Below are positions 9,707 through 42,604 of a stretch of DNA of 64,000 nt, in pieces. The position numbers and the translations under genes are program-made. The first letter of the stretch is position 1; each line of letters begins with the position of its first letter. Source of the DNA: Escherichia coli (GTDB lineage Bacteria; Pseudomonadota; Gammaproteobacteria; Enterobacterales; Enterobacteriaceae); NCBI RefSeq assembly GCF_029227855.1, contig NZ_CP074356.1; one strand, 5' to 3'. The notes under the pieces are model-generated. The model was given only the letters and a program-made list of their open reading frames with translations. It searched no databases and was not told where the DNA came from.

Positions 9707-9744
9707 GTGGGTGTTGTGTTTAGGGGCGGGGTAAGACTACGGGT

Positions 9745-9767
9745 CAGGGCAAGATTACGAAAGCCCG
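9745..9767. repeat. 23-bp direct repeat, copy 1 (CAGGGCAAGATTACGAAAGCCCG)
   Basis: Matches 10121..10143 with one mismatch; the two copies bracket the IS256-family fragment. Confidence 0.6.
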
Positions 9768-9800
9768 GAGCCTGTCCATCATTCTGTGTAAATGCCTTTC

Positions 9801-10130
9801 TCAGAAGTGACCGTCAAGGCGGTCACCGAACTCGATAATAAAGCGACTCATCCCTATCCGCCAGTCCTGAAGTGGCATCGTCCATTTTTGCGACGCTGAC
9901 TGGAAAGCCAGCCACACCACTTTTTTCACCGACTCATCTGTCGGGAACACTTTCCGTTTCTTTATCGCATGTGTGATGATGCTATTCAGCGATTCGATTG
10001 CGTTAGTGGTGTAGATAACCTTGCGGATCGCCTCCGGGTACACGAAGAATGTGGCAACATTCGGCCAGTTTGCCCGCCAGCTGCGACTTATCTGCGGGTA
10101 CCGTGCATCCCATTCCTTCCCAGGGAAAGA
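9801..10130 (-). pseudogene. IS256-family (mutator-type) transposase, C-terminal fragment only
   Basis: About 110 C-terminal codons (..ANWPNVATFFVYPEAIRKVIYTTNAIESLN..) with no start and no N-terminal catalytic region. Confidence 0.7.
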
Positions 10131-10143
10131 TTACGAAAGCCCG
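10121..10143. repeat. 23-bp direct repeat, copy 2 (CAGGGAAAGATTACGAAAGCCCG)
   Basis: Overlaps the junction between the H-repeat transposase stop codon and the IS256 fragment. Confidence 0.6.
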
Positions 10144-11263
10144 CTCCCCGCAAGGACTGACGCCAGATAGTTTCTGTCCATGGCTGCTTTTCGCATCTTA
10201 CGTCTTAACCCTGCCTTGAATACCTTATCATTCGTCAAAATATTAATAGCGATGTGCCGTATCCCTGAAAATAATTCTGCTGCATTTCCTCTTCTTATTT
10301 TGCAGTCGTCTTCATTCATTACCACGTCCAGACGCCAGTGCAGCTTATTCTCCACGTGCCAGTGGTTTCGGATTGCTGTGGCGAACTTCTCTGCGGTTAA
10401 ATCAGCAGAACTAATATAATATCTGACCGCCATTTCTGGCTCTTTCTTTTGTTCTGCTATTATTGACCGAAAGGAGACTGCCACGCATAATTTCTTCAGA
10501 CCTTTCCATTCAAACGTGAAATCAATAAGTTCATCAGGGACATCGCAAACAATGTGAAGACGGATTTCTTCTCTGCCGTGACTCTTTTCACTCATTGCGT
10601 AACTGTCATGCTCTGGATTATTTAATTCTTTCAGCGGAAATTCTCGAAGGCTTTATTTAGCCGCCCCTGGTTTCCTTTTACAGCGAATAAATAATCACCT
10701 CCCTGTTTTTGTATCTTCTCTGCAATATCTTTCTGGCAACCCATCGCATCAGTTGTGATGATTTTTCCTTTAATATCCAGCATGTTAAGAAGTTCTGGGA
10801 TAGCTGTAATTTCATTGGATTTCTCATCCGTCCTGATCTGTCCGATGACCAGACTGTGCATTGTTGAGAACGCACTAATGACATGAATCGCTCCCTTGCG
10901 GCGACTCTTGTCATAAGAATGCCGGAGTGTTTTTCCATCAATTGCGATGACGTCTTTATCATCTGAAGTATGGCAATCTCGCATCCAGTTAATAAAGCAC
11001 TCGTGAAATTTTGCAGGACTGATACAGGATACAACTCTGGCGATGGTATCGTGAACAGGAATACCATTTTAAAAATCACCGTATTGTTTTAAAAAATCGA
11101 GATGTGTTTCCCCAAAATCCTCTATATCTTCCCAACCTTCCGCACCCGAAATAACAGCACAAATAGTCAACAGTAGAATATCCGATAATTTATGTTCCAC
11201 TTTCCAGGCTTGTCTGTAATCGGGGATAATAGAAATATGCCCCATCAATTTTTTAAGTTCTAT
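10131..11263 (-). pseudogene. ISAs1-family (H-repeat associated) transposase, decayed
   Basis: Three collinear pieces of an H-rpt protein: start codon is ATA not ATG (11261..11263), in-frame TAA after ..KQYGDF, and a roughly 4-nt deletion frameshift between 10595 and 10631. Confidence 0.8.
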
Positions 11264-11435
11264 TTTGTTCTCCTTAATTATGTAAGGAGTATTTGATCAT
11301 GTATAAGCAATAAAAAACAGCTTTAGGTAATGAGGAATATCTCAATTTTTAAGCATAAAATGCGAATTATTTAGTACAAAAAAGCAGCGTTACGTGATCT
11401 TTCCCTGCACTTCACCCTAACTTTAATTTAACTTC

Positions 11436-11475
11436 AAGAAGTATTAAGGCCTCAATAGCGAACTTAATACTTCTT
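11436..11475 (-). terminator. perfect 13-bp inverted repeat just past the Rhs immunity gene
   Basis: AAGAAGTATTAAG / CTTAATACTTCTT with 14-nt loop, directly 3' of the minus-strand operon end. Confidence 0.45.
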
Positions 11476-11483
11476 AAAGAATA

Positions 11484-39907: not shown

Positions 39908-39950
39908 TTTACTGTAATAACATAATAAATTACTATTGCGGAGAGATATA

Positions 39951-40865
39951 ATGGCTGGTTTAAGGAATAATAACAACACACAGAATGCACAGTGGGCTGA
40001 TTATGTGGGTGACATTCTTCGGGGGGCTCAACCGATAAACCAGCTAGTACCTCAGCACCCTTATCTTAACGACGTCCCACTCATTGATGAATTAAGGCGT
40101 CAGAACACTCATCATGTTATTCTCTTGACACTTGATGTTGCAAAAAAAATACTCAACTCAATAACATCATTTGATTACATTCATTTTATCACTACACATC
40201 CTTCAGGTATAAAAGATACACTCGCTTGGTTAGTTAACGCGGGTAAATTAATGACTGAGTTTGATGGAAATGGGAAAATTATATTTAACTTTAATACCTT
40301 AAAGTATACAAAAGCAAGTTACTTTGAAATACTTGGAGAGAAATATATAAAAATTACAACATCCAGCCCCTGGCTTTTAGAAAAGCTCGGTAAATATATT
40401 TTCTCTTCACGAGCGCCTCAAGTTCTGGAACTCGCTATTGGCTGGCGAGGAGCTTTATCTGAATCAATAAAAGGAGTTAAGTTCTGTATCTGGTTTTCAG
40501 TAGCCTGGAGAACCATAGAATTTATTATGAGTTCAGAGCGAGATCTGGTTAATTTTCTTGGTGATTTTTCAATGGATGTGGCCAAAGCAGTGATTGCAGG
40601 CGGTGTTGCAACTGCTATTGGAAGCCTGGCTTCTTTTGCCTGTCTTAGTTTTGGCCTTCCAGTAATTCTTGTAGGAGGAGCAATTTTACTTACAGGGATA
40701 GTGTGTACAGTTGTTTTAAATGAAATCGATGCTCAATACCATTTATCAGAAAAATTAAAAGATGCAATTAGAGATGGACTAAAACGGCAACAGGAACTTG
40801 ATAAATGGAAAAGGGAAAACATGACTCCATTTATGTATGTTCTTAACACTCCTCCCGTGATATGA
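39951..40865 (+). CDS. hypothetical protein with C-terminal glycine-zipper transmembrane region (candidate T6SS cargo)
   Basis: 304 aa from ATG 39951 (RBS GGAGAG); AT-rich; C-terminal AGGVATAIGSLASF...LPVILVGGAILLTGIV hydrophobic segments. Confidence 0.6.
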   Translation: MAGLRNNNNTQNAQWADYVGDILRGAQPINQLVPQHPYLNDVPLIDELRRQNTHHVILLTLDVAKKILNSITSFDYIHFITTHPSGIKDTLAWLVNAGKLMTEFDGNGKIIFNFNTLKYTKASYFEILGEKYIKITTSSPWLLEKLGKYIFSSRAPQVLELAIGWRGALSESIKGVKFCIWFSVAWRTIEFIMSSERDLVNFLGDFSMDVAKAVIAGGVATAIGSLASFACLSFGLPVILVGGAILLTGIVCTVVLNEIDAQYHLSEKLKDAIRDGLKRQQELDKWKRENMTPFMYVLNTPPVI

Positions 40866-40874
40866 GGATTAACT

Positions 40875-41129
40875 ATGCGTTTACATGTTAAATTGAAAGA
40901 GTTTTTTTCGATGTTTTTTATAGCCATATTATTTTTCCCTGCATTCAATGCTTCTTTATTTTTTACCGGAATTAAACCTCTATATTCAATAATAAAAGGC
41001 TCCACGGAAATATTTTATGATTGGAGAATGTTGATTCTATGCTTCGGTTTCATATCGTTTTCCTTGTTAAATATTCATGTAATTTTACTAACAATAATAA
41101 AATCATTCTTAATAAAAAAACAAAGGTAA
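40875..41129 (+). CDS. small hydrophobic protein, possibly the 5' part of a frameshifted membrane-protein gene
   Basis: 84-aa ORF with two predicted TM helices; ends just after an A7 run (41113..41119); ORF 41021..41341 continues in another frame. Confidence 0.4.
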   Translation: MRLHVKLKEFFSMFFIAILFFPAFNASLFFTGIKPLYSIIKGSTEIFYDWRMLILCFGFISFSLLNIHVILLTIIKSFLIKKQR

Positions 41130-41489
41130 TCAATTTCGCCACAGACATAACAATACAGCTAACTCTTATATTTTTACTAATAGCTATCGTAATAGCACCT
41201 TTAATAGCTCCTTTTGTCACAGGATATGTCAATGCTAATTATCACCCCTGCGGTAATAACACGGGGATTTTCCCAGGAGCAATCTATATTAAAAATGGCA
41301 TAAAATGTAATAATGAACATATTTCTCGCAAGGAAGATTAAGCAGTTAAATAATTAAATATTCTAAAACAAACAGTTTTTAACGCCGGATTCCATGTCCT
41401 TTCTTGCACTGTCTTTGTCAGGAACAATTTCTTATGCAAAGAATTTTGTATTATTGCCGCCAGAAATTCCTGGCGGCAGATATAATTTA

Positions 41490-42275
41490 TTATTGATAGC
41501 GGTTAACCAAATCTTTTACCATCGCTTTATAGGTCTTTTGCTTAAGTTGTATGATTTGCTGCTCTGTCATATCAGTCGTACTGGCTTCATTCTTGCCGGG
41601 AAATGGTGGAAGCACTTTATATTCATAATTCACCGGCGACCAGGCAGCCCACTCACCTGTAGCTACATCCACCAGCGTGAATCGCACCAGATAGCGCAGT
41701 GAGATTGTGTTAGTCAGTTTTTCATTTTTATAATCGGACCATACTGTTGATTTCAGTGCAGTGTCATATTTTCCTGTCTGCAACGTATCCTGGTAAACAA
41801 TAATCGCTTTCTGATGGCCTTTTGCCGCCACAAAACGTAATGCCTGCATCCAGTTCATATTTTCAGCACTGGCAACATCCTCGTTCTCATTTTTATCTTT
41901 GTTTTTGTTACAAGTCAGAGGCTTTTGTCTGTCCGGGATACCAGAGAATGTGGAAACAGTATAATATTTTCGCATCTCCTCCTGCATAATGGTTTCCGGT
42001 GCGCGGTTGCCGGATTGAACAAGTATTACAGGTGAATTAAGGGGAACGCGGAACTCATCTCCATCAAGCGCAGCTTGAATATCCTCCTCGGATACGGCTA
42101 GTGTGGTTTCATTACCAAATAAGTCTTTGTCTGTTAGTTGCTGCGGAGCGTTTTTATTAAAATTACTTTGTGTGGTTTGAGCTTTTTTCTTCTTTTCATC
42201 AATAAGAGATTCAGAGACACATCCTGCAAGCAGCGACAATAATACATATATACAACAAACCTTTTTTGAATTCAA
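41490..42275 (-). CDS. yafT: lipoprotein YafT
   Basis: 261 aa with lipobox LLAGC; AT-rich; matches the yafT position next to aspV. Confidence 0.85.
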
Positions 42276-42542
42276 AATCGGACACTCCCTCGTCTGTCAT
42301 AATCATGGTAATGTTTAGCTAACGATTTTTAATTATATACTCCACTTGAATCAGAACAAACAAAAATAATATTAAATATTAATTCATTAAATCAATAGAA
42401 TAATAAAAATTATAACATGGAAATATATTTAAATTGAATGATTCGCTGGTATTATTAAATATTAATGAATGGTCAATCATATATAATTACCACATTTACA
42501 GCATAACAAAATAATTGAACGAAGAAATTGTGGGGTTTAAAT

Positions 42543-42576
42543 ACAAAAAAAACCGCAAAATTAAAAATTTTGCGGT
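42543..42576 (-). terminator. rho-independent terminator downstream of aspV
   Basis: AACCGCAAAA / TTTTGCGGTT stem followed by a T8 run on the minus strand. Confidence 0.6.
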
Positions 42577-42604
42577 TCTCTGAACTCATTTTCATGAGTG
42601 AATT

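Follow-up and report, generated by a model that had tools for sequence, protein, structure and literature searches.

T6SS2, a type VI secretion system (T6SS), is among the best-catalogued variable loci of Escherichia coli, having been described in enterohaemorrhagic (EHEC), avian pathogenic (APEC), neonatal meningitis (NMEC) and adherent-invasive (AIEC) strains and in a survey of 131,610 genomes, which placed it in subclass T6SS-i1, found it "broadly present" in all phylogroups and reported its incompleteness in some sequence types (PMC12282107). In enteroaggregative (EAEC) strain 042 it is the sole one of the strain's three systems with an FHA protein, and it is >95% identical across many extraintestinal pathogenic (ExPEC) strains. 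Pathogenicity island (PAI) I of strain LF82, 35,070 bp at AspV, contains a T6SS with two tssD and two tssA-like genes, and EHEC strain EDL933 carries a 37-kb aspV island that is repressed by H-NS and for which Western blots of T6SS- and hns-deletion strains were used to assay Hcp secretion. In APEC and NMEC the system consists of a main operon, vipA2...hcp2A, and a divergent operon of hcp2B, vgrG2 and an effector (PMC5874247). Here we analyse a stretch of E. coli DNA of 64,000 nucleotides (assembly GCF_029227855.1, contig NZ_CP074356.1; hereafter the window), in which positions 9707-42604 form the exact interval between yafV, with its stop codon at 9706, and the tRNA-Asp gene aspV.

We are nearly certain that this interval is the published E. 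coli T6SS2 locus of subclass T6SS-i1, an old chromosomal element between yafV and aspV that varies between strains. Its gene content, intactness and synteny, its population frequency and its K-12 junctions are direct observations. The locus is already known, as a first-pass annotation made from the sequence alone had also held of its T6SS, and every major feature matches published T6SS2 loci; as a discovery it carries little weight. What we add is small: the K-12 junction at base level with its frequency, a reading of yafF, yafU and ykfM, a correction concerning PAAR, the missing mobility signatures, and ykfM as a possible orphan gene of the Tmi-like kind. The practical value lies in context, in that the strain carries a complete i1-type T6SS gene set with two cargo slots: an Rhs protein whose tip is uncharacterised fills one, together with a DUF7674-like immunity gene, and a Tme-type toxin with a broken immunity gene fills the other. 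These could guide competition experiments, and they raise no new question.

A complete T6SS gene set between yafV and aspV

We called gene families with NCBIfam models, taking end-to-end matches above curated cut-offs (Table 1). All 13 core components, TssA to TssM, are full length, with two copies of Hcp/TssD, and they are joined by TagH and VasI. The main operon occupies 19.9 kb of the plus strand in the order tssB-tssC-tssE-tssF-tssG-tagH-tssJ-tssK-tssL-clpV-vasI-tssA-tssM-tagA/vasL-like-hcp2A, and its TagA/VasL-like protein, which scores under the TssA cut-offs in NCBIfam, is recognised by the Pfam families ImpA_N and VasL. The first-pass annotation had described the 13 core genes as all present and apparently intact, accompanied by tagH, a VasI-like gene and a TagA/VasL-like gene, and this description stands: frameshifts and truncations were looked for in the core genes and none was found.

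For comparison we used JNEC-KY178, a RefSeq genome annotated with the Prokaryotic Genome Annotation Pipeline (PGAP) that is 99.94% identical to the window. Its T6SS genes carry no PGAP pseudogene flags, and the core genes contain no frameshift or internal stop. Across 48.7 kb the two sequences differ by 21 substitutions and two indels; within the island the sole changes other than substitutions are an in-frame 6 bp in clpV and a 1-bp deletion in ykfM. The former is a length polymorphism near 31110, where the repeat encoding the (Ser-Glu)n linker of ClpV (of the GAGTCA type) is one 6-bp unit shorter than in JNEC-KY178.

The end of clpV at 32338 overlaps the start of vasI at 32335 by 4 bp, leaving no room for vasH, and no unassigned open reading frame (ORF) remains in the main operon to encode it. 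A sigma-54 consensus scan likewise returned no promoter in a regulatory position upstream of any operon, so that the earlier remark on the absence of the activator vasH was correct. Two sites with one mismatch to the sigma-54 consensus were rejected as promoters, since each falls within a coding sequence, that of tssM or that of hcp.

The large vas/vip cluster of Vibrio cholerae (VCA0107-VCA0123) would share subclass i1 with the window, given the published equation of T6SS2 with T6SS-i1 (PMC12282107) and the best-hit similarity of the sheath proteins. Among solved structures, the best relatives of TssC are those of V. cholerae VipB (824 bits, against 382 bits for the Pseudomonas aeruginosa H1 protein), and the best relative of TssB is V. 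cholerae VipA (173 bits, against 45 bits for the H1 protein). With VasI, VasL and FHA family members also in the window, the label of a V. cholerae-type system, given beforehand, is a reasonable one. The two loci differ in that the window lacks vasH and a sigma-54 promoter, regulation by H-NS being what the literature reports, has its hcp inside the cluster, and carries an Rhs protein as spike cargo instead of VgrG-3/TsiV3.

The likeness to E. coli T6SS2 is closer. The window has the hallmarks of that system, namely the yafV-aspV site, tagH, vasI and a vasL-like gene, with hcp in two copies and hcp and vgrG in a divergent operon. It agrees with published loci in gene set and order, in its two ImpA_N proteins and in having an effector gene in the divergent operon. 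Only the usual variable parts differ, since the window has its own Rhs tip/immunity allele, a frameshifted ykfM and its own insertion sequence (IS) debris at the left edge. Positions 19300-43000 are covered to at least 80% in 2035 of 5426 complete E. coli genomes, one of which matches almost exactly. The placement at tRNA-Asp had been proposed previously, and both ARAGORN and Rfam identify the aspV gene at the right-hand end of the yafV-aspV gap; across the island this tRNA is the sole Rfam match.

Within the main operon, the 310-bp gap between tssB and tssC holds a 74-amino-acid ORF with a weak match to positions 43-82 of the TssC model (E 5e-4). On this similarity, the ORF at 20538-20762 is probably a relic of a partial duplication of the tssC 5' end.

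Table 1. Features of the yafV-aspV interval and the adjoining tRNA gene. Scores are from NCBIfam models unless another source is named; GC, guanine plus cytosine content.
Feature	Position	Strand	GC (%)	Evidence or remark
IS256-family transposase 3' fragment, pseudogene debris at left edge	9801-10112	-		NF033543, profile positions 266-336 only; PGAP "transposase, incomplete"
ISAs1-family (H-repeat) transposase pseudogene, 3' of rhs	10131-11263	-		NF033564 on two broken ORFs; PGAP "frameshifted; internal stop"
Candidate Rhs immunity gene, 125 aa, DUF7674-like	11484-11861	-	35.4	Directly 3' of rhs, overlaps rhs stop codon
Conserved C-terminal toxin domain of Rhs tip, unnamed polymorphic-toxin family (predicted)	11864-12196	-		Rhs residues ~1389-1499
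rhs, Rhs effector, 1499 aa	11861-16360	-		RHS_core equivalog, 2498.8 bits (cut-off 2000), residues 1-1256; TIGR03696, TIGR01643
vgrG (tssI), spike protein, 713 aa	16436-18577	-		TIGR03361, 625.8 bits
hcp (tssD), hcp2B in APEC nomenclature	18787-19305	-		TIGR03344, 207 bits, full length
AT-rich divergent intergenic region, hcp2B-tssB	19306-20001	.	33.5	
tssB, vipA-like small sheath subunit	20002-20502	+		TIGR03358, 171.5 bits
74-aa ORF in tssB-tssC gap	20538-20762	+		PGAP hypothetical protein
tssC, vipB-like large sheath subunit	20813-22288	+		TIGR03355, 702 bits
tssE, baseplate	22295-22708	+		TIGR03357, 111.5 bits, full length
tssF, baseplate	22712-24562	+		TIGR03359, 560 bits, full length
tssG, baseplate	24526-25608	+		TIGR03347, 344 bits; PGAP start
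tagH, FHA-domain accessory protein	25633-26913	+		TIGR03354, 341 bits; PGAP start
tssJ, outer-membrane lipoprotein	26910-27434	+		TIGR03352, 133.7 bits
tssK, baseplate	27437-28768	+		TIGR03353, 453.8 bits
tssL, DotU-like membrane-complex subunit	28773-29534	+		TIGR03349, 215 bits
tssH/clpV, sheath-recycling AAA+ ATPase	29543-32338	+		TIGR03345, 1118.5 bits (cut-off 885)
vasI, accessory	32335-33078	+		TIGR03360 equivalog, 256 bits
tssA, vasJ-like	33083-34495	+		TIGR03362, 499.6 bits
tssM, icmF/vasK-like membrane-complex subunit	34574-38038	+		TIGR03348, 931.7 bits
TagA/VasL-like accessory protein	38049-39401	+		Pfam ImpA_N 3e-19, VasL 7.5e-22
hcp2A, second hcp, final gene of main operon	39425-39907	+	39.1	TIGR03344, 204.5 bits
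Tme-family predicted membrane-disrupting effector, 304 aa	39951-40865	+	37.7	Directly 3' of hcp2A
ykfM, putative Tmi-like immunity gene, frameshifted	40875-41341	+	29.6	Poly-A tract 41107-41113, A7 instead of A8
yafT lipoprotein gene	41490-42275	-		PGAP and K-12 annotation; BLAST to K-12; common to K-12
tRNA-Asp (aspV), GUC anticodon	42605-42681	-		ARAGORN; Rfam 67.7 bits; right-hand landmark

Two cargo slots

The divergent operon, of the kind described for hcp2B in APEC (PMC5874247), runs on the minus strand from hcp2B through vgrG and rhs to an immunity gene. VgrG is a plain gp27/OB/gp5 spike without an added effector domain (Pfam Phage_GPD, Phage_base_V, Gp5_trimer_C). The Rhs protein begins with a PAAR-like N-terminus (residues 1-50, positions 16211-16360), followed by a DUF6531 plug (Pfam, residues 49-126) and the YD-repeat shell. 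An autoprotease motif that we read from the sequence, DPIG-x18-DPLG, closes the core at about residue 1256, and residues 1257-1499 form a variable tip of 243 residues (11864-12592). Of the hcp-vgrG-PAAR-Rhs operon reported at first pass, hcp, vgrG and Rhs were confirmed and PAAR was not: there is only the Tse5-type PAAR-like N-terminus of about 50 residues, and in Rhs residues 1-400 Pfam PAAR_motif (PF05488) gave no match even at E <= 10, while DUF6531 and RHS repeats were found. KPAARQGD, at Rhs residues 4-11, is the sole PAAR-like motif in the island, and its alignment to the full PAAR domains of Tre23 and Pseudomonas protegens RhsA is confined to their last repeat.

The best solved relative of this protein is P. 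aeruginosa Tse5 (RhsP1), whose architecture includes the PAAR-like fragment Tse5-NT, of 5 kDa (PMC10684867). The two have in common a short N-terminus (about 47-50 residues) bearing one PAAR-like motif, the DUF6531 plug (PVNPxLGxK), the YD shell and a DPxG-x18/19-DPxG autoprotease before the toxin, and P48 at the start of the Tse5 shell aligns with P51 of Rhs. By analogy, the Rhs N-terminus would dock on VgrG in the manner of Tse5. The C-terminal toxins are unrelated, that of Tse5 (Tse5-CT) being a pore former and that of the window an unnamed helical domain, and outside the plug and shell identity is low.

The last ~110 residues of the Rhs tip form a conserved domain in which certain Arg, Glu, His, Lys, Trp and Asp residues are invariant. 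In many genera, Rhs, VENN/CdiA, PAAR and pre-toxin-TG proteins carry a homologue of it at the extreme C-terminus. The tip belongs to no family in Pfam or NCBIfam. A profile of the domain found nothing credible in the PDB by sequence, and the single tip sequence matched there only a linker that it shares with the CdiA-CT of uropathogenic E. coli (UPEC) 536. This linker-like stretch, tip residues 94-168, lies upstream of the nuclease domain in CdiA-CT; its occurrence in both proteins suggests a module reused between toxins of type V secretion systems (T5SS) and T6SS. An AlphaFold2 model of the tip domain has five helices (pLDDT 90.4).

The 125-residue candidate immunity protein had no NCBIfam match, and is 37% identical (E 8e-32) to a 125-residue DUF7674 protein of Pantoea whose gene sits 3' of a VENN/CdiA-type carrier of the same toxin domain. 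The co-occurrence of tip domain and DUF7674-like gene in a CdiA-type system of Pantoea supports their being an effector-immunity pair. We found this tip/immunity allele in 267 genomes, many others matching only partly, and it is therefore one variant of a polymorphic slot; APEC strain TW-XM has XmtU/XmtV in the effector slot instead (PMC5874247). Separately, the 16 bp at 14830-14845 in the rhs core differ from JNEC-KY178 by four substitutions, where the background is about 1 difference per 2 kb; this cluster may have arisen by gene conversion from another rhs copy.

The second slot follows hcp2A. The 304-amino-acid protein encoded there had no match in Pfam or NCBIfam, and the motif that we read in it, DVAK-AVIAGGVATAIGSLASF...NEID, corresponds to a DxxK, a transmembrane helix and a later Asp. 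The same position in strain 746 is occupied by WP_000908071.1, to which our protein is tied by this locus position and not by alignment; that accession is catalogued with a Tme domain at residues 122-277 (E 1.3e-37), the same Hcp accession upstream and YkfM downstream (Fridman et al. 2020 supplement, PMC7046647). The gene product is thus predicted to be a membrane-disrupting effector of the Tme family, and one already catalogued. The founding pair, Tme1/Tmi1 of Vibrio parahaemolyticus, shares the C-terminal DxxK, transmembrane helix and Asp, and E. coli orthologues appear in that paper's table. The layout in the window also fits that family, the effector gene coming directly after a T6SS gene (here hcp) and being followed by one for a small multi-pass membrane protein. 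The window differs in that YkfM is only DUF1240-like and its gene is frameshifted, and the E. coli member is a predicted one.

Around distant relatives in Salmonella and Rahnella we found Hcp-Tme-DUF1240 triads. NCBIfam has no match to YkfM; aligned with DUF1240 proteins from the same position in these two genera, YkfM is 20-50% identical and shares Cys, Tyr and Gly columns. PGAP flags the same A7 allele of ykfM as frameshifted in strain 746, and among complete genomes we counted 44 with an exact match to the A7 allele and 255 with an exact match to A8. The A7 allele may reflect real slippage or a homopolymer assembly error. In the literature searched, 12 papers mention ykfM, and none links the gene to a T6SS in its title or abstract.

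In Salmonella enterica GCA_027232745.1, positions 1-12924 carry tssA, tssM, a vasL-like gene, hcp, a Tme homologue (63% identity), two DUF1240 genes and then yafT, dnaQ and rnhA. An i1-type system thus fills the same chromosomal site in another genus, as may be compared with SPI-20 at aspV; the gene order tssA-tssM-vasL-hcp-Tme-DUF1240-yafT-dnaQ is syntenic, and identity to the window is moderate, as the value for the Tme protein illustrates. In Rahnella GCA_003614975.1, positions 6001-7937 hold an orphan module of a Tme homologue (39% identity), a DUF1240 gene and a convergent hcp, among metabolic genes and far from any T6SS cluster, lending support to the view that Hcp, Tme and immunity genes travel together as a cassette.

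Loss of the system in K-12

We aligned the K-12 MG1655 locus to the window by BLAST. K-12 retains 5625-9767 (fadE, ivy, yafV), 10132-10411 and 40509-45112, and it lacks 9768-10131 and 10412-40508; the two loci thus do not have the same gene content. The K-12 pseudogene yafF is the 280-bp fragment 10132-10411, the 3' part of the ISAs1/H-repeat transposase adjoining rhs, and the pseudogene yafU is the final 112 codons of the 304-amino-acid gene after hcp2A. In K-12 these pieces meet in the 5-bp microhomology AGAAC, which the window has both at 10407-10411 and at 40509-40513. K-12 therefore lost the system by one deletion of 30,097 bp rather than never gaining it. Of the two possibilities left by the initial description, that K-12 had lost these genes or never gained them, the yafF and yafU scars leave the first. 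This one deletion accounts for three K-12 annotations, yafF, yafU and ykfM.

The K-12-type junction is present in 371 complete genomes (301-bp probe across the junction, coverage at least 80%). The T6SS is indeed missing from K-12, as had been said at first pass. K-12 does have the ~2.1 kb adjoining the tRNA, which comprises the 3' end of the 304-amino-acid gene, ykfM and yafT. Both ykfM and yafT are accordingly common to K-12 and not strain-specific, and ykfM is kept intact there. In the literature searched we did not find the yafF/yafU junction described as the two ends of one deletion, nor ykfM as a possible orphan.

It is possible, and we propose it tentatively as something we would not expect to hold in most outcomes, that these K-12 genes record a disarmament with protection kept. 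The deletion would have removed T6SS2 and most of the Tme gene and left an orphan Tmi-like ykfM that protects against Tme delivered by T6SS2. The window would represent the opposite state, with weapon and toxin intact and ykfM broken at a slippage-prone poly-A tract, so that either the system is kept silent or immunity can switch. If this were true, an intact orphan ykfM would still protect K-12-type strains from the Tme of T6SS2-armed E. coli.

Origin, regulation and probable working

The base composition is a mosaic. The T6SS core has 55.9% GC, the Rhs core 63.5% and the Rhs tip 46.6%, and values fall to their lowest in ykfM (Table 1). Neither the PGAP annotation nor the ORF list of the island includes an integrase gene, and a search of the window with 16-24-nt words taken from the tRNA 3' end met them only at aspV and aspU. 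Lacking both an integrase and a repeat of the tRNA 3' end, and with the shared backbone genes yafT and ykfM beside the tRNA, the locus is not a classic tRNA-integrated mobile island. The T6SS islands of Salmonella offer a parallel: at SPI-20, which shares the aspV landmark, Blondel et al. likewise reported no direct repeats of the tRNA 3' end and no integrase, and SPI-20 and SPI-6 resemble the window in lacking flanking direct repeats and in having a core of 55-60% GC with low-GC patches. SPI-6 differs in belonging to another T6SS phylogenetic group and in carrying fimbrial operons.

H-NS repression of both operons has been published for EHEC and for APEC (PMC5874247 for the latter). By analogy, the promoters of both operons and the H-NS target presumably lie in the AT-rich divergent region at 19306-20001, from which H-NS would silence both, with no VasH/sigma-54 circuit.

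Expression, secretion activity, the activities of the toxins and who protects against what are matters that we infer. The main operon encodes a complete contractile injection machine, with TssJLM as membrane complex, TssEFGK as baseplate, TssBC as sheath and Hcp as tube, TssA and the TagA-like protein acting as assembly factors and ClpV recycling the sheath. The divergent operon supplies spike and cargo. The PAAR-like N-terminus of Rhs would dock on VgrG in the way that Tse5 does, the C-terminal toxin is enclosed by the YD-repeat shell and released by the DPxG-x18-DPxG autoprotease, and the 125-residue protein would protect the producer. The low-GC slot after hcp2A would add a Tme-family membrane-disrupting effector, probably carried by Hcp, followed by the Tmi-like immunity gene ykfM, frameshifted here.

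Several observations weigh against this account of an active T6SS2 or some part of it. The island contains no other PAAR-like ORF and no full PAAR domain, so that capping of the spike is drawn from Tse5 only. Fold searches with the model of the Rhs tip domain returned only generic helical bundles, pointing to no specific activity. The V. cholerae gene order, vipA-vipB-tssE-vasA-B-C-D-E-F-G-(H)-I-J-K-L, is taken from established knowledge; its agreement with the window from vipA to vasL is backed here only by family names and by the best-hit similarity of TssB and TssC to VipA and VipB. A scan of 19200-20900 for sigma-70 promoters and terminators gave 5 promoter-like sites where 4.1 were expected, which is chance level. 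Intact YkfM has no Pfam match, DUF1240 included, and the gene is broken in the window while its partner effector gene is intact, which is awkward if the system is active. Work on EHEC, finally, found the system poorly expressed in vitro.

Among other explanations, the one that survives best, though we consider it somewhat unlikely, is that the system mainly targets host cells in virulence, as proposed for T6SS2 of meningitis and avian strains and for EHEC KatN, and is not antibacterial. Reviews give T6SS2 a role in pathogenesis, and they describe effects of strain RS218 Hcp proteins on brain endothelial cells and protection of EHEC by KatN inside macrophages. Both cargo slots in the window, however, are laid out as antibacterial effector-immunity pairs (Rhs tip with the DUF7674-like protein, Tme with the DUF1240-like one), the APEC hcp2B-vgrG2 operon delivers the antibacterial XmtU (PMC5874247), and T6SS2-Rhs tips of enterotoxigenic E. 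coli (ETEC) and of O157 kill bacteria. Host and antibacterial roles are, moreover, not mutually exclusive.

We think it distinctly improbable that the locus is a silent or decaying relic, complete in appearance yet disused and heading for a loss like that in K-12. Poor in vitro expression and H-NS silencing have been reported, the left edge is littered with IS256 and ISAs1 remnants, and ykfM is frameshifted. The locus is also often lost or incomplete, being kept to at least 80% in only the 2035 genomes counted above, deleted as in K-12 in 371, and reported as incomplete in some sequence types (PMC12282107). Against decay, the 13 core ORFs, both hcp genes, vgrG, rhs and the immunity gene are all full length with scores above threshold; of the few differences from the nearest genome (21 substitutions and two indels in 48.7 kb), neither indel disrupts a core gene; and the homologous EHEC and APEC systems were reported to be functional once de-repressed.

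Recent acquisition as a mobile island inserted by an integrase into the aspV 3' end would fit the position directly downstream of the tRNA 3' end, the mosaic GC from 30% to 63.5%, the transposase fragments, the naming of a pathogenicity island at aspV in the literature and the other T6SS islands hosted by aspV in Salmonella, but it is highly improbable given that neither an integrase nor, except at aspU, a repeat of the tRNA 3' end exists in the window, that the DNA adjoining the tRNA (yafT, ykfM) is common to K-12, that the system occurs in all phylogroups (PMC12282107), that K-12 has a deletion scar and no empty attachment site, and that a syntenic cluster occupies the same locus in a Salmonella genome.

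The surroundings of the T6SS2 locus are those of the E. coli backbone, to which yafT, without an NCBIfam match and not strain-specific, also belongs. In the PGAP annotation of a near-identical genome the left neighbours are fadE, ivy and yafV and the right neighbours dnaQ, rnhA, yafS, gloB and mltD; the orientation of the aspV locus in the window is the reverse of that in K-12, and a second tRNA-Asp lies at 51539, downstream of the rRNA operon. At the left edge, the IS256-family fragment 9801-10112 is missing from K-12, falling within the absent segment 9768-10131. A 15-bp repeat, GATTACGAAAGCCCG, occurs from 9753 and from 10129 and bounds the left-edge segment missing in K-12. Outside the island, the annotation of the near-identical genome places an IS200C transposase gene at ~47135-47593, between mltD and a yafE-like methyltransferase gene.

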